Shown piece by piece: positions 31,404 to 46,706 of a stretch of 64,000 nucleotides of DNA. This DNA comes from a bacterium. Its GTDB lineage: Bacteria > Krumholzibacteriota > Krumholzibacteriia > G020349025. The stretch spans positions 32,001 through 96,000 of the forward strand of contig JANLSU010000058.1 in assembly GCA_031362565.1 (NCBI GenBank), given 5' to 3'. The translations under genes were made by a program, and so were the position numbers. The stretch's first letter is position 1, and each line of letters starts with the position of its first letter. Below the pieces are notes generated by a model. That model had not been told where the DNA came from. It worked only from the letters and a program-made list of their open reading frames with translations, and made no database searches.

Positions 31404-32704
31404 TCGGCCAGCAGACCACCATTCGCGACGCCGTCGCTATCGAGGGACTCGGACTGCACACCGGCAGCCCGGTTCGCATGCAATTGCATCCGGCGGGGCC
31501 CGATCACGGCATCGTTTTCCGGCGCACCGACCAGACGCCGCCGGTCGACATCCCGGCGCTGGTCCGCTTCGCGCCGGAGCACAGCGACCTCGGGCGCAAC
31601 ACGACGCTGCAAAGCGGCGACGTCCGGATTCACACCGTCGAGCACATCCTGGCGGCGGTGAGCGGCCTCGGCATCGACAACCTGCGGATCGATCTCGACA
31701 GCCACGAGCCGGTGGAACCGCCGGACGGCAGCTGCGCTGCCTTCGTGGCCAAGCTGCGGACCGCTGGCATCGTCAAGCAAGGGACGCCGAAGCGCACCTT
31801 CACGGTGCGGCGCCCGGTGACGTTTCGGGACGGGGAAGTCGAACTGCAAGCCGTTCCGTACGACGGTTTCCGCATCACATTCACGATCGTTTACGACAAC
31901 CCGGTGATCGGCACCCAGCAGGCCAGCTTCGACATCGATCCCGAGACCTTCGAACGAGAGATCGCCCCGGCCCGCACGTTCGCACTGCTGCGTGATGTTC
32001 GGGAACTACAGAAGATCGGCCTGATCAAGGGCGGCACGCTGCAGAACGCCGTCGTCGTCGACGAGGACAAAATCGTCAACGACGGGCCGTTGCGTTTTCC
32101 CGACGAGTTCGTGCGCCACAAGATCCTCGATCTGCTCGGCGACTTGGCACTGCTCGGCCGGCCCATCCAAGGGCACATCCTCGCAGTGCGCTCCGGCCAC
32201 GAGACGAACGGCAAGTTCGTGCAACGCTTGGCGCAAGCCGCCGGCGACGTCAAGACATCGCGCCCCGGCATCGTCTGGGACATCAATGACATCCAACGCA
32301 TCATGCCGCACCGCTACCCGCTGTTGCTGGTCGACCGGATCCTCGAGTTCGAGGACCGCAAGCGGGTCGTGGGTATCAAAAACGTCACGATCAACGAACC
32401 GTTCTTCGTCGGCCATTTCCCGGGCCATCCGATCATGCCGGCGGTCCTCATCATCGAAGCCATGGCCCAATGCGGCGGCGTGTTGCTCCTGAACAGCGTC
32501 GACGATCCGGCGAACAAACTCATGTACTTCATGGGCATCGACAAGGCGCGCTTCCGGAAACCGGTGTTGCCGGGGGACCAGTTGCGCTTCGAGCTGCAGT
32601 TGCTGCGATTCGGCGGCTCGGTGTGCAAGATGGAAGGCAAAGCCTACGTCGATGGCGAACTGGTGGCCGAAGCGGAGCTGCTTTCGACGATCATCGAGAG
32701 GTAA
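31400..32704 (+). CDS. lpxC: Bifunctional LpxC/FabZ
   Basis: Lpx[38 protein letters not shown]. Fab[27 protein letters not shown]. Confidence 0.96.
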
Positions 32705-39731: not shown

Positions 39732-40510
39732 GCGACTCACCGTGGTACGCCGACCGGTTCGACGCCACGTACTTGGAAACGTACGCGCACCGGGACCGTG
39801 CCGAAGCCGCTCGTGCGACGCAAGGCATTCTGGTGCCGCTCGGATTGCAGGGCCGCCGCGTGCTCGATTTGTGCTGCGGGGCGGGGCGTTATCTCGAGCC
39901 CCTCGTGGCGGCCGGTGCAGAGACGGTAGGGCTGGATTTGTCGGCGCCGCTCCTCGGTGCGGCGCGGGCGGCTCTCGGCGGCCACGCTGCGCTCGTCCGG
40001 GCCGACATGCAACGGTTGCCTTTTCGAGCCGCGTGCTTCGACCGGGTGATCAACATGTTCACGAGTTTCGGATACCTGCCAGAGCCGGACGACGACCGAG
40101 CCGTGTTGGAGGAGGTTGCCCGGGTGCTCGTACCGGACGGGGTGTTCGTGTTGGATACGTTCAACTCCGAGCTCGTGCGCGACGGTCTCGAGCCCGAAAC
40201 GCACCGCACGGTCGGACGATGGGAAGTCGTCGAACGGCGCCGTTTGGACGCCGGGCGGGTCGTCAAGGAAATCGCCATGCAGTCGGGGAACGAGATTCGG
40301 CGCTATCGTGAAGACGTGCGCTTGTGGATGCCCGGCGCACTCATTGCCGCGGTGGAGGGCGCCGGGTTCGTGGTCCGATCGACGTATGGCGATTACGACG
40401 CCGGCGCCTTCGATGCGCGCTGCTCACCGCGCTTGGTGATCGCCGCGAGCCGCTCGTCCGCCCGCGGATCTGCACCATCGGAGGCTGCATGCGCGCCGTC
40501 GCGGCGTTGA
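39728..40510 (+). CDS. Class I SAM-dependent methyltransferase (candidate bacillithiol N-methyltransferase)
   Basis: WY..FD..YL..YAHRD..EA N-terminus, VLDLCCGAGR, GLDLS, RADM, NMFTSFGY; overlaps nadB stop and bshC start. Confidence 0.88.
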   Translation: MSDSPWYADRFDATYLETYAHRDRAEAARATQGILVPLGLQGRRVLDLCCGAGRYLEPLVAAGAETVGLDLSAPLLGAARAALGGHAALVRADMQRLPFRAACFDRVINMFTSFGYLPEPDDDRAVLEEVARVLVPDGVFVLDTFNSELVRDGLEPETHRTVGRWEVVERRRLDAGRVVKEIAMQSGNEIRRYREDVRLWMPGALIAAVEGAGFVVRSTYGDYDAGAFDARCSPRLVIAASRSSARGSAPSEAACAPSRR

Positions 40511-42006
40511 ATTGGGATGCTTACGGCTGGGCGACACCGCTGGCCCGGGCGCAGGTCAAAGGGGACCTGCCGGAGGCGCTGCAGGCGCCGCGGCTGGTGG
40601 ACGTTGCGCGTACCGCGAACCGCGCCGACATGCCGGCAGCGTTTCTGACCGCGTTCCTGGCGGAGCTTCCGGCCGCAGAACGGGCTCCTTGGGTGCCGCT
40701 TGGCACTCCCGGAGCGCGCGCCGTCGTTACCGGCCAGCAACCCGGGTGCGCCGGCGGCACCGCGCTCGTGTTGTACAAAGCCGCGACTGCGGTGGCCCTG
40801 GCCCAACGCCTCACGCAATCGTCCGGACGGCCCGTGGTGCCGGTGTTTTGGAATGCCACCGACGACGAAGATTTCGAAGAGATCGCGCGCGTTGGTTGGC
40901 TGGATGCAGCGTCGCGGCTGGCGTTTCTCGAACTGCCGCGCGAGGCGCGGACCGCAGCCGGTTGGGTGGGGGATCTGCCGGCGGCCGGTGACGAAGCCGC
41001 GGTGCAGGCGGCGCTCGCCACGATCGGCAGCGAGCGTCGCGGCGATTTCACGCTGGGTCTGGCTGCCGATCACGGCGCGTGGGTCGGCGCATTTCTGCGC
41101 CACGTGTTCCCGGAACTGGCGGTCCTCGACGCCCGCAGCGTTGCATTGCGCCGGCATGCCGCGCCGCTCTTTCGGCGCTATCTCGAGGCGCGTGACGCGG
41201 TGCCGGCCGCGGTCGAAGCCCAGATCGCCGGCGCTCAAGCGCTGGGTTTCGAGCGTACTCTGGCGGCGGCGAGCGTGCGCGCCGGGCTGTACTGGACCCC
41301 CGATCGCCGCCGGCAAAAGATCGGCGATGATTGGACACCGCTCTTGACGGCGGTCGAGCGGGCACCGGAAACCCTGTCGCCGAACGTGCTGTTACGCGCT
41401 CTGGTGCAAGACACTCTGCTGCCAACCGTGGCGCAAGTCGTGGGTCCGGCGGAGATCGCCTATCTCGTCGAGCTGCGTCCGCTCCGGCGCCTCCTCGACG
41501 TAGCCGAACCGGCACTCGTGGCGCGCCTGACGGCGACTCTGGTGCCGGAGCCGGCTTGGGAGGCATGGCAGGGATTGGGTGAGAGCGCCGAGTCGTTGGT
41601 GCGCGGTCCGGACGCCGGTCTTGCGGCGGCGGCAAGCGAGCGCGAGCGACCAGCGCGTGAGGCCCTCGCGGCCGCCTTCGCCGCCTGGCCCGATCGTCTC
41701 GCAGCTCTCGGTGTCCCCGAGGCGCCAAGAGTTCGCGCCGCGCGCAAGATGCAGGGCGTGCAGGAAGAACTCGACCGGGCGCTGGTCGACGCGGCGCGGG
41801 CGGGCCTGCTCGCGAGCCGTCCGGCGCTCGCCGGGTTGGAAACGCGCATCCGCCCCCGCGGCCAGGCGCAGGAGCGGGTGGTCGCCGGACTGTGGTTGTG
41901 CACGACGCTTGGGCCGGCGGTGCGCACCGCCCTTTTGGAACTTGCCGGCGTGCACCTCGACGCGCTCGCCGGGGATCACGCCGCCCACTACGTGGTGGCG
42001 CACTGA
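40489..42006 (+). CDS. bshC: Bacillithiol biosynthesis protein BshC
   Basis: AVVTGQQPG, LYKA, VPVFW.ATDDEDFEEI, LSPNVLLRALVQD.LLPT, GPAEIAY, QERV. Confidence 0.88.
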   Translation: MRAVAALNWDAYGWATPLARAQVKGDLPEALQAPRLVDVARTANRADMPAAFLTAFLAELPAAERAPWVPLGTPGARAVVTGQQPGCAGGTALVLYKAATAVALAQRLTQSSGRPVVPVFWNATDDEDFEEIARVGWLDAASRLAFLELPREARTAAGWVGDLPAAGDEAAVQAALATIGSERRGDFTLGLAADHGAWVGAFLRHVFPELAVLDARSVALRRHAAPLFRRYLEARDAVPAAVEAQIAGAQALGFERTLAAASVRAGLYWTPDRRRQKIGDDWTPLLTAVERAPETLSPNVLLRALVQDTLLPTVAQVVGPAEIAYLVELRPLRRLLDVAEPALVARLTATLVPEPAWEAWQGLGESAESLVRGPDAGLAAAASERERPAREALAAAFAAWPDRLAALGVPEAPRVRAARKMQGVQEELDRALVDAARAGLLASRPALAGLETRIRPRGQAQERVVAGLWLCTTLGPAVRTALLELAGVHLDALAGDHAAHYVVAH

Positions 42007-42015
42007 GGAGACTCG

Positions 42016-42753
42016 ATGACGATTTCCGCCGGATATGATGTGCTCGCCATCGGCGCGCACCCGGACGACGTGGAGGCGGCGTGCGGCGGCTGGCTGGCGC
42101 AGCTTCGGCGTGATTCCTACCGGGTAGCGATCTGCGACCTGACGCGTGGCGAACTCGGAACGAACGGTACGGTGGAGGTGCGGGCCGCGGAGGCCGCCGC
42201 CGCGGCGCGAGTTCTGGGCAGCGAAACGCGCCTGCAACTCGGCCTACCCGACGGCGCGATCGACGCACGCGACCCGGAACAACTCGTCGCCGTGGTGCGG
42301 GCGTTGCGCACCCACCGGCCGCGTCTCGTGGTCACGCCGCACGAACAAAGCCGGCATCCCGACCATTCGGAAGCTGCCGCCCTAGTGCGCAAAGCGGTTT
42401 TTTTCACTGCCGTGCCACGTTTTGCGCCCGACATTCCGGCGGCGCCGCGGCCGGTGCGGATCCGAGCGACCGACTATTGGCCGGTGGTGCCGTCCTTCGT
42501 CGTCGACGTGAGTGCGACGCTCGATCTCAAACTGCAAGCGCTGCGGTGCTATCGTTCACAGTTCGAGCTCGACGCCGCGAGTCAGCCGACGCACTTGAAC
42601 GACGCTGCCTATTTACAGCGCATCGAAACCGACGCGCGGCACTACGGCCGGCTCATCGGCGCCGCGGCGGGCGAGGGGTTTGTCATCGATGGCGCCGTGC
42701 CGCTCGCCGACCCGGTGCGGGCTCTGGCGCCTCGGGCGGAGGTACGGGCGTGA
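42016..42753 (+). CDS. bshB1: N-acetyl-alpha-D-glucosaminyl L-malate deacetylase BshB1
   Basis: AIGAHPDDVE, DLTRGELGT.GT...R..EA, RHPDH, CYRSQF. Confidence 0.9.
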   Translation: MTISAGYDVLAIGAHPDDVEAACGGWLAQLRRDSYRVAICDLTRGELGTNGTVEVRAAEAAAAARVLGSETRLQLGLPDGAIDARDPEQLVAVVRALRTHRPRLVVTPHEQSRHPDHSEAAALVRKAVFFTAVPRFAPDIPAAPRPVRIRATDYWPVVPSFVVDVSATLDLKLQALRCYRSQFELDAASQPTHLNDAAYLQRIETDARHYGRLIGAAAGEGFVIDGAVPLADPVRALAPRAEVRA

Positions 42754-43883
42754 AGATCGGCATTACGTGCCATACCGGTTCCGGCGGCAGTGGGATCCTA
42801 GCCACCGAACTGGGACTGCGCATGGCGGCACGCGGCCACGAGGTGCATTTCATCGCCCGCGAATCGCCGTTTCGCCTCCCGGGCTACGTCGACAACGTCT
42901 TCATGCACGCCGTGGAGACAGTGTACTACCCGTTGTTCCAGGAACCGCCGCATTCCCTGTCCTTGGCTTCGAAGATGGCCGAGGTGGCGGTTTCCTACGA
43001 TCTCGACGTGCTGCACGTGCACTATGCGATCCCGCACACGGTCAGCGCCTATTTGGCGAAACAAATGCTGGCGCCGCGGCCGCTCGGGGTGGTCACGACC
43101 CTGCACGGCACCGACATCACGCTCGTCGGCAATCAGCCGATTTTCCAGCGCATCACCCGCTTCTGCATCGAGAAGAGCGATCGCGTCACGGCCGTGTCGG
43201 AGTTCTTGCGCCAGCAAACCCTGCGTACCTTCGACGTCAGCCGCGAGGTGCGCGTCATCCACAACTTCATCGACCTGGAACGCTTCGTCGAGCGTGACAA
43301 TGCAGCCTTGAGGGGGCGTTTCGCGGCCCCCGAGGAATTCATCGTCATGCATGCTTCGAACTTCCGGCCGGTCAAGAATATCGGCTTCTTGATCGATGTG
43401 TTCGATGGCATCCAGCGGGTGCTGCCGGCGCGGCTGGTCCTGGTGGGGGAGGGGCCGGAGATCACGCTCGCCGAGCGCCGGGTGGACGAGCTCGGCCTTC
43501 AGGCCAGGGTCCGGTTCTTGGGCAATCAAGAAGGCATCGAACAACTCTTGCCGCTGGCGGATCTCTTTCTGCTGCCGAGTCATCACGAGAGTTTCGGGCT
43601 CGCGGCACTCGAAGCGATGGCGTGCGGTGCGTTGGTGATCGCGACCTCCTCCGGCGGCACGCGTGAAGTCATCGATGACGGTGTCACCGGTTTTCTGCAC
43701 CCGCCGACCGATGTCGCGAGCTGGACGCGTACCGCGGTCGAAGTCTTGCGCGATCCGGCGCTTCGGGCCCGCATTCGCAGTGCGGCGCGGCACGCTGCGG
43801 TGACGCGCTTTGGCGGCGAAACGGCATGTGCAGCCTACGAAGACGAGTATCGCCTCGCCCGCGAACAAGCGCACGCTCGTTGA
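42750..43883 (+). CDS. bshA: N-acetyl-alpha-D-glucosaminyl L-malate synthase BshA
   Basis: KIGITC...GGSGILATELG, LHVHYAIPH, TTLHGTDITLVG, HASNFRPVK, ESFGLAALEAMACG. Confidence 0.94.
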   Translation: MKIGITCHTGSGGSGILATELGLRMAARGHEVHFIARESPFRLPGYVDNVFMHAVETVYYPLFQEPPHSLSLASKMAEVAVSYDLDVLHVHYAIPHTVSAYLAKQMLAPRPLGVVTTLHGTDITLVGNQPIFQRITRFCIEKSDRVTAVSEFLRQQTLRTFDVSREVRVIHNFIDLERFVERDNAALRGRFAAPEEFIVMHASNFRPVKNIGFLIDVFDGIQRVLPARLVLVGEGPEITLAERRVDELGLQARVRFLGNQEGIEQLLPLADLFLLPSHHESFGLAALEAMACGALVIATSSGGTREVIDDGVTGFLHPPTDVASWTRTAVEVLRDPALRARIRSAARHAAVTRFGGETACAAYEDEYRLAREQAHAR

Positions 43884-43908
43884 CAGGCGGCCAGGGCCTT
43901 CCTACGAT
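43880..43908 (+). promoter_or_regulatory. Near-consensus sigma70 promoter TTGACA-N17-TACGAT
   Basis: TTGACA 43880-43885 (overlaps bshA stop), TACGAT 43903-43908; RBS GGAGGAGG 43941-43948 before ATG 43956. Confidence 0.8.
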
Positions 43909-43955
43909 CTCGACAGCGATGCGACGCCCCGTGCAGCGGGGGAGGAGGCGAACGA

Positions 43956-44951
43956 ATGAGTGGCGGGTTGCGGCGGTGGTTGTGGCGGGCGGCCGCGTTA
44001 GGGGCTTTGCTCGGCGCCGGATGTAGTGGCCGGTCGGACGATTTCTTGGTGGCCTATTCCGGCGATTGCCAGGGGTATAGCGAGCCCTGCGGATGAACTG
44101 CCGCCCGCCTCGGCGGACTCGCCCGGCGGGCGAGCGTTCTCAAACCACTCTTGAATCGGTACCCGGCGCATCTCGTCCTGGATGCGGGCGGCTGGGCCGA
44201 GCGCACCAACCCGGATCGCGCCGATTTGCGCTCGCGGTTCGTGTTGCAGGGACTTCACCAGCTCGGGCTCGAGATCGCCAATCTATCGGCGCGTGAGCTC
44301 AAGCTCGGTCCGGCGGTGTTGCGCGCGTTAGCGGATTCGTCGCGCGTCCAGTTCGTGTCGGCGAATATCGAAATTCCCGGCGCCCGCACCTGGCTCAAGC
44401 CGTACATTATTTTGAATCGCAGCATCGGCGGCCGCGCGGTGCGCATTGGCATCGCCGGTGTGTCGCTTTCCGTCCCGGACGTCGGCAGCCTGTGGCCCGA
44501 CTCGTTGGCGCCCAAGATCACCGATCCGATTGCCGCCGCCGAACAAGTATTCGAGACTCTCAAACCACAGACCGACATGCAGATTCTGCTCGCCTACGTG
44601 CCGACCGCCGAACTCGATCGGGATTCGACCGAATTAGAGGGCTATGACTTGGTCGTCGCGGGCGCCGGGGACCTGCGTGAATCCCCGCCCGTGGGCAAAC
44701 TTCCGGTCGTGCTGGCGCCGGGGACGCGGTGCAAATTCGCCGGCTGGATCGCGCTGCGGCCCACCGAGGGCACGAGCTACGCGGTGGCCGACGGCGGCGT
44801 CGTGCAACTGGACACCAAGGTGCCCGATGACCCGGCAATGGCCAAGCTGGTACAGCAGTTCAAGGACCGTCTGGGGCCACCAGCCGCCGCCCCTTCGACC
44901 CGCCAAACGGTCCCCCCGGGCGAGGCGCTTTCCCGCCATCCGCTGCCTTGA
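43956..44951 (+). CDS. UshA/5'-nucleotidase-fold selenocysteine lipoprotein (UGA 44094-44096 = Sec47, CxU motif), 331 aa
   Basis: MSGGLRRWLWRAAALGALLGAG-C lipobox, YSGDCQGYSEPCG-U-TAARLGGLARRA, in frame with ORF-track 44151..44951 (LVLDAGG, FVSANI, KPYIIL, RIGIAGV); SECIS hairpin follows. Confidence 0.88.
44102..44132 (+). promoter_or_regulatory. Bacterial SECIS element
   Basis: CGCCCGCC(44102-09)/GGCGGGCG(44125-32) lower stem, GGCG(44112-15)/CGCC(44120-23) upper stem, GACU apical loop starting with G, 19 nt after the UGA. Confidence 0.8.
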
Positions 44952-44965
44952 TTCGGGGCCATCGG

Positions 44966-44994
44966 TTGCGCGGGCCGCTCGGCTCGTTTACTAT
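44966..44994 (+). promoter_or_regulatory. Putative sigma70 promoter TTGCGC-N17-TACTAT
   Basis: Hexamers with 17-nt spacer upstream of RBS GGAGG (45049-53) and ATG 45062. Confidence 0.45.
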
Positions 44995-45061
44995 TCCCCA
45001 GCGGCGGCGCGGCCGCAGTGCACAAGCCCTTGTCCCAAGCCCGTTTGTGGAGGTCCGCCCG

Positions 45062-45823
45062 ATGAAGCGCAGCCTCGCGCTCGCGATTCTGGCCGTGGTT
45101 TTCACGCTCCAGCCGGCCGCTGCGTCCGAGTGGCTCGGAATGGATGGCGGCTACCTTCGGGCAGCGGGCCGCAGCAACGATTTTGCCCACGACGGCAGCC
45201 AAATCGAACTGTACTGGCAGCACTTCAATAAAGGCCGGTCCGGGCTGCAATTCGGGGCCGGTTATCTGGAATTGGGTCTCGAGGGCGCGGTGCAGAACCA
45301 GGTCGCCGAGTTCGCCACCCTGGTGCGCGAAAAGAATCGCGCCGCACAGTTTCAGGGCGGTCCCGGCGACGGTTGGCTGAGCGCCGAGTGGGGCGTGTTC
45401 AAGGCGTCGTATTTGACCACCAACCTGATTGTCCGTCCGTGGGCGACGGGCCACGTCGCGCCATTCTTTACGGCCGGTGTGGGCGCCTACAAGTGGCGCT
45501 TGCCGTTTCGCGTCAAATTCTATGACACGCCGTTCTTCGGCGAGCAGCACGCCTATGACGAGCCCGGCGCCGGAACTCTGTACACCGGAATCATCCGCAA
45601 GGATCAGGTGGACTTCACCAAGGACGGCGTCACCGGCGGTGTGAACGGCGGCGTTGGGGTCGCGGTTCGCGTCGTCTCGAACCTCCAGGCGACCGCCCAG
45701 GTACGCGCCCATCTCCTGTTCACATCGGGGCGCGGCAACCGCGAAGAAGGCATCGACGATCAGGACTATCTGAATACCGTGACGTTTTTTCTCGTGCGTG
45801 GTGGATTGAGCTACCGGTTCTGA
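45062..45823 (+). CDS. Outer-membrane beta-barrel protein (OmpA/porin-like)
   Basis: Signal peptide MKRSLALAILAVVFTLQPAAA, alternating beta strands, PFFTAGVG, GVNGGVGV, C-terminal GLSYRF. Confidence 0.82.
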   Translation: MKRSLALAILAVVFTLQPAAASEWLGMDGGYLRAAGRSNDFAHDGSQIELYWQHFNKGRSGLQFGAGYLELGLEGAVQNQVAEFATLVREKNRAAQFQGGPGDGWLSAEWGVFKASYLTTNLIVRPWATGHVAPFFTAGVGAYKWRLPFRVKFYDTPFFGEQHAYDEPGAGTLYTGIIRKDQVDFTKDGVTGGVNGGVGVAVRVVSNLQATAQVRAHLLFTSGRGNREEGIDDQDYLNTVTFFLVRGGLSYRF

Positions 45824-45833
45824 CTTCCGTGCC

Positions 45834-46706
45834 TCACCGTTGCCGCCGCAAGAGGTCGACTTCCCGCCGGAGGGCGTCGAGTTCGCGATGCATCTGTTGC
45901 AGCTCGCGGCGTAGTCCGTCGACATCGTCGCTCGGCCGTGGCGTCGCACGGCCGCTCGGCCGAAACAGCGAACCGCGCGATTCAACCTCGAGGCGCAGCG
46001 ACGTACGCCGTTCGTGGCGCCAGACAACGACGTCCACCAAGCCGGAATCCGCCGCGGCGCGATTGGCGAGTTGTTGCCGCAACTCGCCCGTACTGTGGAC
46101 ATCACGGCCGTCGACGCCGAGCACCAAGTCACCCGCCTCGAGCCCGCCGCGGTCGCCGGCGCCACCCGGAAGGACCCGGGTGACGAGCGCGCAATCCGGC
46201 CGTGGGGCGTGAAAATAGGCCGCGAGGTCCGCATCGAGGTCGACGAGATCGGCGCCGAACTCGGGCCGGACCTGAAACCAGTCGTTCGGCGACCACGATC
46301 CCTGCAGGCGATCCACCAGCGCGTCCGGATCGAATCCGTCACGGCGTGCCGCGAGCGCGATGTCGACCGTCTGATTCGCGGCTCCCGCCCGCCTGAGCGT
46401 CAAGCGCAGGCGCTCACCCGGATGACGGTCCTGAACCCGGGACACGAAGGCGGCGCGATCCGCGACCGGCGCGCCATCCACGGCCACGATGACATCGCCG
46501 GCACGAATGCCGGCACCGGCGGCCGGACCTTGCGGCTCGACAACCGTGACTTCGACGCCCGTCTCGTTGGCAGAGGCCTCGCGGACTGAAATCCCCAGCC
46601 ACGCGCGCCGGGCCCGGTCGAGATTCGAGTCTTGCGCCGATGCGGCGGACACCAACAGCAGCATCGCAAGTCCAGCAAGACCGCCGCCGCTCAACCTGAT
46701 TCGCAT
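45834..46706 (-). CDS. Exported tandem-PDZ-domain protein with C-terminal coiled coil
   Basis: Signal peptide, AWLGISV, GPAAGAGIRAGDVIVAVDG, second PDZ GGLEAGDLVLGVDG, tail LRRELQQMHRELDALRREV; no protease domain. Confidence 0.85.
   Translation of the reverse strand: MRIRLSGGGLAGLAMLLLVSAASAQDSNLDRARRAWLGISVREASANETGVEVTVVEPQGPAAGAGIRAGDVIVAVDGAPVADRAAFVSRVQDRHPGERLRLTLRRAGAANQTVDIALAARRDGFDPDALVDRLQGSWSPNDWFQVRPEFGADLVDLDADLAAYFHAPRPDCALVTRVLPGGAGDRGGLEAGDLVLGVDGRDVHSTGELRQQLANRAAADSGLVDVVVWRHERRTSLRLEVESRGSLFRPSGRATPRPSDDVDGLRRELQQMHRELDALRREVDLLRRQR

Follow-up and report, generated by a model that had tools for sequence, protein, structure and literature searches.

The 64,000-nucleotide stretch of DNA analyzed here (the window) comes from a bacterium of the Krumholzibacteriia (GenBank assembly GCA_031362565.1, contig JANLSU010000058.1, forward strand) and corresponds to positions 32001–96000 of contig C6 in the genome that we designate G000. 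Within it lies a gene that conventional calling of open reading frames (ORFs) breaks at an in-frame UGA. The full coding sequence runs on the forward strand from 43956 to the stop TGA at 44949–44951 and specifies 331 residues, and its codon 47, TGA 44094–44096, almost certainly encodes selenocysteine (Sec), to judge from comparison with related genes. The explanation that best accounts for the observations as a whole, and in which we have high confidence, is that the product is a Sec-containing lipoprotein, that its UGA is recoded with the help of a selenocysteine insertion sequence (SECIS) in the form of a compact hairpin with a GGC loop, that its UshA-like fold no longer holds a metal site, and that it presents a C-x-U redox center in the cell envelope.

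The frame from 43956 to 44951 reads MSGGLRRWLWRAAALGALLGAGC23...YSGDCQGYSEPCG-U47-TAARLGGLARRA, and the TGA at 44094–44096 is its single internal stop. Under translation table 11 the locus is listed as a 46-residue ORF (43956–44096) and a 266-residue ORF that starts at an internal TTG (44151–44951, forward strand); the latter is the form that gene callers give and the only form in which the locus is present in the public protein collection (P0002). This shorter ORF is an artefact of stopping at the UGA. There is no ribosome-binding site at TTG 44151, and in the AF2 model of the fold the 266-residue form is without the signal peptide, strand 30–35 and most of helix 55–68. In the full frame, by contrast with that form, positions 43956–44024 (forward strand) encode a signal peptide with Arg6, Arg7 and Arg11, the stretch AAALGALLGAG and a putative lipobox that ends in Cys23 (44022–44024). 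Cys23 is invariant in 7/7 sequences of the subfamily, and the box itself, as read from the sequence, is the canonical L-S-G-C or V-A-G-C in the orthologues and G-A-G-C in the window. The signal sequence fits the lipoprotein pattern PROSITE PS51257, and the mature selenoprotein would be lipid-anchored. A twin-arginine (Tat) signal was also considered, given the RRWLW of the window protein, and was rejected on the grounds that the twin arginine is not retained in the orthologues. Downstream of the signal, the motif Cys45-Gly46-Sec47 (44088–44096, forward strand) occupies three positions that are all invariant in the subfamily. A first-pass annotation made without database searches had described this same architecture, that is, a promoter, a ribosome-binding site, ATG 43956, the lipoprotein signal LLGAG-C23, an in-frame TGA at 44094 and a frame open to 44951, with the ORF track limited to the C-terminal 266 residues from an internal TTG. 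Each of these features is found where it was placed, the table 11 list agrees, and the core reading is borne out, namely a 331-residue extracytoplasmic protein that adopts the UshA fold and contains both a C-x-U motif and the cysteine of a putative lipobox.

The machinery for decoding UGA as Sec is encoded in the same genome. The gene for tRNA-Sec (selC) scores 78.8 bits and is called by ARAGORN with the anticodon tca, and profile matches identify selB (350 bits against a cut-off of 242), selA (501 bits against 268) and selD (384 bits against 125); the set selA/selB/selC/selD that the read-through proposal implied is therefore present in all four members, above curated cut-offs. In addition, selD contains one in-frame TGA of its own, which suggests that the Sec system is in use and makes the selenophosphate synthetase of G000 itself a predicted selenoprotein. 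The selD gene is located at G000:C6:945–1859, on the same contig and approximately 30 kb ahead of the window. Two further features of the genome belong to the same subject. The tRNA-Sec model has a second match at G000:C70:109509–109606 (locus L002, 1501–1598), which scores 52.6 bits against a gathering threshold of 47, receives no tRNA call from ARAGORN, and may represent an additional or decayed tRNA-Sec, or else an unusual tRNA with a long arm. Some 700 nucleotides downstream of the tRNA-Sec gene, at G000:C62:1559–2245 (L011), there is a 646-residue frame resembling a translation GTPase, whose weak match to selB (74 bits) falls short of the cut-off.

Comparison with other genomes also supports reading codon 47 as Sec. 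A six-frame search of 60 related genomes together with G000 found homologues in 61/61. The four closest orthologues, which are from the same taxonomic family and 47–49% identical to the window protein, contain exactly one in-frame TGA each, and in 4/4 this TGA follows a signal peptide with a lipobox Cys and lies in the motif [ED]PCG-U-R[SA]GR[LF]-GGLARRA. The complete orthologous proteins have 336–342 residues and the same layout as the window protein. The 46 codons upstream of the TGA are likewise conserved as protein, with the signal peptide, the lipobox Cys and the pattern YSxDxQ...EPCG all recognizable. Furthermore, the same short subfamily includes two full-length metagenomic homologues in which cysteine takes the place of Sec, namely P0008 (52% identity, EPCGC) and P0011 (48% identity, DPCGC). 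The wider family was surveyed in an alignment of 161 homologues, made up of 12 from a first protein search and 149 further sequences among the best 150 of a wider search. Position 45 is Cys in 128 of the 161. At position 47, where the first-pass annotation had predicted Cys or UGA in homologues, Cys is found in 127 and Trp in only three, with single occurrences of Arg and Tyr and a gap in the remaining 29, which are N-terminally truncated calls; the orthologues retain the TGA, and the prediction thus holds. Since the TGA and its flanking peptide are conserved in other genomes, the features of the locus exceed what chance would produce; and since the TGA is kept at one codon across diverged genomes while the flanking protein is conserved, a nonsense mutation or sequencing error is effectively excluded.

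The signal for recoding most probably resides in a hairpin at 44118–44134 (forward strand), whose conservation and covariation point to a functional SECIS. Its sequence, CUCGCCC-GGC-GGGCGAG, forms a 7-base-pair stem with the loop at 44125–44127, 28 nucleotides after the UGA. The hairpin is built, at fixed spacing, from the codons for Leu55-Ala-Arg-Arg-Ala59-Ser in the window, corresponding to Leu/Val-Ala-Arg-Arg-Ala-x in the family. Folding was first carried out for 30 homologous loci, on the 63 nucleotides that come after the codon for Sec or Cys, and this smaller hairpin recurred among them. It was measured in 71 loci (L019–L049 and L058–L097); L074, L084, L095 and L096 have no motif, off-frame chance matches to the motif were removed in L019, L020, L047, L049 and L079, and 43 Sec forms then remained to be compared with 24 Cys forms. 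Stems of at least 6 contiguous base pairs are present in 42/43 Sec forms (6 pairs in 23, 7 in 4 and 8 in 15, with 4 in the remaining one), and the loop is GGC in 27 and GGA in 16, with no other loop represented. The Cys forms, in comparison, have 3 pairs or fewer in 24/24 cases (0 in 11, 1 in 9, 2 in 3 and 3 in 1). Even Cys forms with the identical peptide GGLARRA (L029, L040 and L047) form 1 pair each, since they encode Arg by CGC or CGU and not by CGG-[C/A]GG.

To assess covariation, the 43 Sec forms were aligned without gaps (A4, with 41 distinct rows). The conserved hairpin is paired in 91.8% of cells as against 77.2% in shuffles, with 0/500 shuffles as high, and its covariation is 0.432 as against a maximum of 0.151 when partners are slid. 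Compensatory changes fall at synonymous sites: pair 27–39 is GC in 16 rows, CG in 8, GU in 8, UA in 5, UG in 3 and something else in 1, and pair 30–36 is CG in 35 and UA in 6, with none unpaired. When the window RNA is folded without the first 15 nucleotides counted from the start of the UGA, the conserved hairpin is the minimum free energy (MFE) structure, at −14.2 kcal/mol, and its 23-nucleotide core has an energy of −12.7 kcal/mol. The omission of these 15 nucleotides mimics the RNA covered by the decoding ribosome, an idea that comes from E. coli fdhF. The published model of the bacterial SECIS (bSECIS), as outlined in one review, specifies a loop of 3–9 nucleotides, a stem of 4–16 base pairs, a spacing of 16–37 nucleotides, an MFE of −7.5 kcal/mol or lower, and a G within the first two loop positions that is usually followed by G or U (PMC13188914). 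The hairpin at 44118–44134 falls within every one of these constraints (7 base pairs, GGC, 28 nucleotides, −12.7 kcal/mol).

Like the SECIS of the E. coli fdhF type and the bSECIS model, then, the candidate is a hairpin in the coding region after the UGA, with a small loop led by G and with spacing and energy within the limits. It differs in that its loop has just 3 nucleotides (GGC, or GGA in relatives), or 5 if the closing C-G pair opens, in that a conserved peptide constrains its sequence, and in that it lies 28 nucleotides from the UGA and has no match in Rfam. A permissive Rfam scan of 43800–44400 returned no SECIS family, and the only hits, mir-3492 (E 1.1) and ZMP-ZTP (E 9), are at the level of chance. 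In certain distant Sec-form paralogues (L025, L028, L032 and L034) an extra hairpin, for example CCCACC-loop-GGUGGG, is found in the first 24 nucleotides after the UGA, preceding the conserved GGC- or GGA-loop hairpin. Such an extra upstream hairpin was considered for the window as well and set aside, as by inspection its register does not suit the window sequence.

The read-through protein yields a confident AF2 model (pLDDT 90.7, pTM 0.86) from an alignment, A3, of 102 full-length sequences of up to about 520 residues, which were chosen from the best matches and are not a random sample. Foldseek places CD73 (6ye2_B, E 9.5e-20, TMq 0.68), E. coli UshA (1ush) and the Thermus 5′-nucleotidase (2z1a) at the top of its matches, and the family profile compared with the Protein Data Bank (PDB) recovers 2z1a (E 3e-44) and SoxB (3e-32). 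In the model the mature protein accordingly adopts the fold seen in the N-terminal part of 5′-nucleotidases such as UshA and CD73, their metallophosphoesterase domain. A Pfam scan of the read-through protein gave no family match, Metallophos included. The PDB matches span only about the first 310–350 residues of targets that have 500–550, and the window protein has no C-terminal nucleotide-binding domain, ending as it does at residue 331, at the linker helix of the 5′-nucleotidases.

To locate the metal site we used the ligand motifs of metallophosphoesterases (DxH, GD, GNH[ED], H and GH), reading positions from the profile-to-PDB and window-to-profile alignments. Asp37 is retained; Gln39 stands for the His of DxH, Gly79 for the Asp of GD, Ala112-Arg113 for the Asn-His of GNHE, Tyr214 for a His and Ala237 for a further His. 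In other words, one of six metal ligands is kept, and the catalytic His is replaced. Because the metal site is lost, the catalytic His is gone and there is no substrate-binding domain, the window protein is, on the evidence of these alignments, not a nucleotidase of any known kind. What it shares with UshA and CD73 is the fold (Foldseek E 1e-19 to 1e-17, TMq 0.64–0.69) and the GG[LV]ARR helix; what sets it apart is the absence of five of the six ligands, of the catalytic His and of the C-terminal domain, together with the gain of a C-x-U center. The earlier designation of the protein as having an UshA fold is therefore apt as a description of a 5′-nucleotidase fold, but UshA activity is not implied, the metal site being gone. 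The invariant new feature is Cys45-Gly-Sec47, situated in the loop that leads from the first strand to the GGLARR helix.

It is also worth placing the protein among the UshA-like selenoproteins that have already been catalogued. Selenoproteins described as "COG0737, UshA-like", with a CxU motif, were listed in a 2008 ocean-metagenome selenoproteome, where they accounted for 76 Sec sequences and figured among a small number of families to which no redox motif or function was assigned (Zhang & Gladyshev 2008, PMC2398784). Two reviews, from 2022 and 2026, give CxU as the motif of NF041198 and CxxU as that of NF049981, a "family 2" (PMC9312934, PMC13188914). The best NCBIfam match of the window protein is NF041198 (UshA_like_PCGU), which it matches with 98.3 bits where the cut-off is 275, and only over profile positions 19–262 of 519; the match to NF049981 (UshA_like_Sel_2) reaches 33.7 bits against 140. 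The orthologues score 122–129 bits on NF041198 and the Cys forms 83–94. The first-pass annotation had assigned the protein to a recognized family, and this is right insofar as it is related to the UshA-like selenoprotein families, although it lies below the thresholds of both NF041198 and NF049981.

In common with NF041198 the window protein is exported, has an N-terminal 5′-nucleotidase-like domain, contains the motif P-C-G-U/C followed by GGLARRA (the PCG[U/C] and GGLARR of that model), belongs to a group in which Sec and Cys alternate, and has its SECIS on the LARRA codons; it differs by having no C-terminal part, which in a paralogue of G000 is a cytochrome c554-like domain with four CxxCH motifs. 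With NF049981, a short model of 262 positions that also describes an UshA-like selenoprotein, it shares weak similarity over the N-terminal 80 residues, whereas its motif is CxU and not CxxU and its score is far below the cut-off. The short subfamily to which it belongs has about 9 representatives scoring at least 200 bits in a library clustered at 50% identity, and the relatives that can be named are metagenome-assembled genomes of Candidatus Krumholzibacteriia and Candidatus Latescibacterota. By these scores and alignments the window protein is a member of a separate, small and short subfamily without haem and without the metal site, which lies below the curated models. The G000 paralogue just mentioned is a second UshA-like selenoprotein, encoded on the minus strand of contig C22 (locus L049, 441–1835); it has 465 residues, the motif ECGU, a score of 261 bits on NF041198 (cut-off 275) and the Cytochrome_C554 domain at its C terminus.

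These observations can be brought together in a proposal for how the protein is made and what it does. UGA 47 would be decoded as Sec by the cell's own SelA, SelB, tRNA-Sec and SelD, with the compact 7-base-pair GGC-loop hairpin as the recoding signal. The active center would be the pair of Cys45-Gly-Sec47, in the loop that follows the first strand, and this pair would cycle through a selenenylsulfide, making the protein a selenol/thiol redox protein of the envelope that acts on a small substrate of the sulfur or selenium type or on a partner protein. We infer the Cys45–Sec47 redox chemistry and the type of substrate partly from relatives: the Cytochrome_C554 haem domain is present in 38 of the 102 A3 sequences (Metallophos matches 3 of the 102), and fusion to a c-type haem domain suggests that extracytoplasmic electron transfer involves the C-x-C/U domain. 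Neither a haem domain nor a CxxCH motif occurs in the window protein, which, being without haems, would need a separate partner for this purpose.

Several points weigh against the reading just set out. No RNA run was found for the locus, and selenium incorporation and expression are predictions. Among four DNA runs, only X1 spans the TGA, in an identical contig, and X2–X4 reach only parts downstream of 44132; because X1 is probably the source of the assembly and the other runs start beyond the TGA, the codon has no independent read support. Taken with the fact that gene callers give just the 266-residue ORF, here and in most metagenomic relatives, the negative result for RNA runs might be thought to favor a TGA that is a true stop or nonsense mutation, in which case the locus would be a pseudogene or its real product would be the 266-residue ORF from TTG 44151. 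We consider this extremely improbable. It would leave unexplained why a TGA occupies the same codon in four other genomes at 47–49% protein identity, why the 46 codons ahead of it are conserved as protein and why Cys substitutes for it in full-length homologues, and the product would have to begin at a TTG without a ribosome-binding site and go without a signal peptide as well as the opening strand and helix of the modeled fold.

A selenoprotein could be real and yet employ a SECIS other than the GGC-loop hairpin, and here the folding energies tell against our choice. The first-pass annotation had located the SECIS in a larger hairpin at 44095–44139 (forward strand), with a GACU loop at 44116–44119. 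That fold does exist, as the MFE structure of 44094–44160 (−32.8 kcal/mol, z = −3.67, 1/200 shuffles as good), and in naked window RNA it is far more stable than the conserved hairpin, with which it shares nucleotides and is mutually exclusive. It comprises a 4-base-pair upper stem and an 8-base-pair stem extending further, its 4-nucleotide loop begins with G at 19 nucleotides after the UGA, so that it too lies within the generic bSECIS constraints, and its upper stem, GGCG/CGCC, can be formed in the four orthologues. The conserved hairpin, for its part, is unremarkable for its GC-rich context as a 35-nucleotide fold (z = −0.67, with 47/200 shuffles equally stable), and the stability of its 23-nucleotide core (z = −2.14) is not clearly beyond shuffles. 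Because neither of these two energies of the conserved hairpin is clearly better than shuffles, the argument has to be made by comparison between sequences, and this comparison has weaknesses as well. Three pairs of the hairpin are fixed by conserved amino acids and the sequences are relatives, so the count of 0/500 shuffles overstates the support; the hairpin was defined from the same sequences, which flatters it in the comparison with slid partners; and most of the 24 Cys forms belong to a GGLGRRA clade with altered stem codons, leaving only three like-for-like Cys comparators.

Nonetheless, the comparative data separate the two folds. On the 41 distinct Sec-form rows the GACU-loop fold is paired in 52.3% of cells against 50.9% in shuffles, with covariation of 0.113 against 0.108, which is to say at shuffle level. 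None of the four orthologues has its lower stem unbroken, and its loop reads GA and not the usual G[G/U]. Moreover, its 5′ strand begins 1 nucleotide after the UGA and, by analogy with E. coli fdhF, would be inside the decoding ribosome once the UGA is in the A site. We therefore judge it unlikely that the GACU-loop hairpin is the working SECIS, and it is better described as an alternative fold of the naked RNA: the claim of a SECIS hairpin stands, but comparative support attaches to the other hairpin, which is conserved, covarying and absent from Cys forms. As for the proposed function, the window protein lacks a haem domain and its redox role comes by inference. The main functional rival is that the C-x-U center, together with Cys38, binds a soft metal or metalloid, so that the protein would be a binding, chaperone or sensor protein, or contain a new kind of metal site, with no redox cycling. 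Cys38, Cys45 and Sec47 do place three thiol or selenol groups within 10 residues, Cys38 is retained in 6/7 subfamily sequences, the protein is built on an ancient metal-binding scaffold in which one Asp ligand survives, and Sec is known in general as a metal ligand in other enzymes. In the wider family, however, Cys38 is not conserved (Thr, Val or Leu is commonest there), haem-domain fusions among relatives indicate electron transfer, and the adjoining genes are the bsh genes, a β-barrel gene and a gene for a PDZ protein, with no metal-handling genes among them. We regard metal binding as the less probable role, though it carries appreciably more weight than the GACU-loop alternative, and we retain the reading of Cys45–Sec47 as a redox pair.

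The neighborhood of the gene is itself informative. Immediately upstream, at 40324–43883 on the forward strand, is a bacillithiol cluster of bshC-like, bshB1 and bshA genes, the end of which is 72 nucleotides before the start of the selenoprotein gene. The bshB1 gene (42016–42753, forward strand) scores 230.9 bits against a cut-off of 182.5, and bshA (about 42750–43883, forward strand, scanned as 42777–43883) scores 469 bits against 273.7; the bshC-like gene is under its cut-off, with 186.9 bits against 265.8. The start of bshA is probably GTG 42750, which overlaps the bshB stop. A bshB-bshA pair is found directly upstream of 4/4 orthologues, and bsh genes are near none of the more distant homologous loci examined (L024–L048 and L053–L057).

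On the downstream side, 45062–45823 (forward strand) encodes an exported protein of 253 residues that is predicted to be a small outer-membrane β-barrel. Its AF2 model (pLDDT 89.6) is all-β, with 10–12 strands and one long helix (residues 76–97), and the best matches to its fold are OmpA, OmpW and OmpX. The barrel protein has no Pfam or NCBIfam match of its own; its 31 homologues are all of about 250 residues, and PF13505 is matched by 6/31. The barrel gene lies downstream in 3/3 orthologous loci that reach that far, and several barrel homologues are on contigs of the same sizes as those of selenoprotein homologues (2914, 24698, 3814 and 5783 bases), which suggests, but does not prove, that the selenoprotein and barrel genes travel together, the Cys form P0011 included. 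Beyond the barrel gene, and convergent with it, is a minus-strand gene (45834–46706) whose exported product contains two PDZ domains, lacks a protease domain and is weakly similar to the PDZ part of NF041199, a "Trx7/PDZ domain-containing (seleno)protein"; this gene was not found beside the orthologues. One can imagine from this arrangement that the selenolipoprotein, far from being a mere shortened version of the known family, is the catalytic part of an envelope module that includes the outer-membrane barrel and that is tied, through its bsh neighborhood, to bacillithiol chemistry outside the cytoplasm; on the surface of Krumholzibacteriia cells it might, for example, reduce or exchange thiols, polysulfides or selenium species. 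We put this forward as a speculation with a small chance of being correct.

A σ70-like element, TTGACA-17 nucleotides-TACGAT (43880–43908, forward strand; TTGACA at 43880–43885 and TACGAT at 43903–43908), matches at 10/12 positions and is the sole such site within 43600–45200, where shuffles give a mean of 0.2; its TTGACA overlaps the bshA stop TGA at 43881–43883, and it would be expected to work as a promoter. A Shine-Dalgarno-like sequence, GGGAGGAGG, was read at 43940–43948 (forward strand), 7 nucleotides before ATG 43956. In the orthologous loci L020 and L022 a promoter-like element, CGTTGACAG...N17...TA[GA]AGT (its second part lying within TCCTA[GA]AGT), is found upstream, similar to the window promoter and 40 nucleotides before the ATG; it lies only about 9 nucleotides from the ATG, which implies a very short leader or none in those loci, and the leader in the window has 47 nucleotides. 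After the stop codon there is a weak terminator-like stem-loop at 44970–44987 (forward strand), which is not above chance (1 site against a shuffle mean of 1.6).

The novelty of these findings is modest, in that the selenoprotein family has been catalogued since 2008; what is new is the short subfamily without haem or metal site, the corrected SECIS and the conserved neighborhood. Some consequences are practical. The annotation needs to be corrected for a gene that has been shortened to 266 residues here and is likewise cut in nearly all metagenomic relatives, and, given scores beneath the curated cut-offs, automatic pipelines would probably miss it. The SECIS of the UshA-like selenoproteins can now be pinned to the Leu-Ala-Arg-Arg-Ala codons across the 43 Sec-form loci of G000 and related genomes, and it is gone once Sec has been replaced by Cys. 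The hairpin thus offers a clean natural example of a SECIS that constrains synonymous sites, and a simple marker by which such genes might be recognized.

For the family itself, the subfamily described here represents a minimal form in which to study the C-x-U center, because it has given up the metal site of the phosphoesterases and carries no haem domain. The neighborhood of bshBA, selenoprotein and β-barrel genes provides a testable lead to the function of the family, and if the selenolipoprotein should indeed prove to be the catalytic part of an envelope module linked to bacillithiol chemistry, this would be the first functional handle on the entire UshA-like selenoprotein family.

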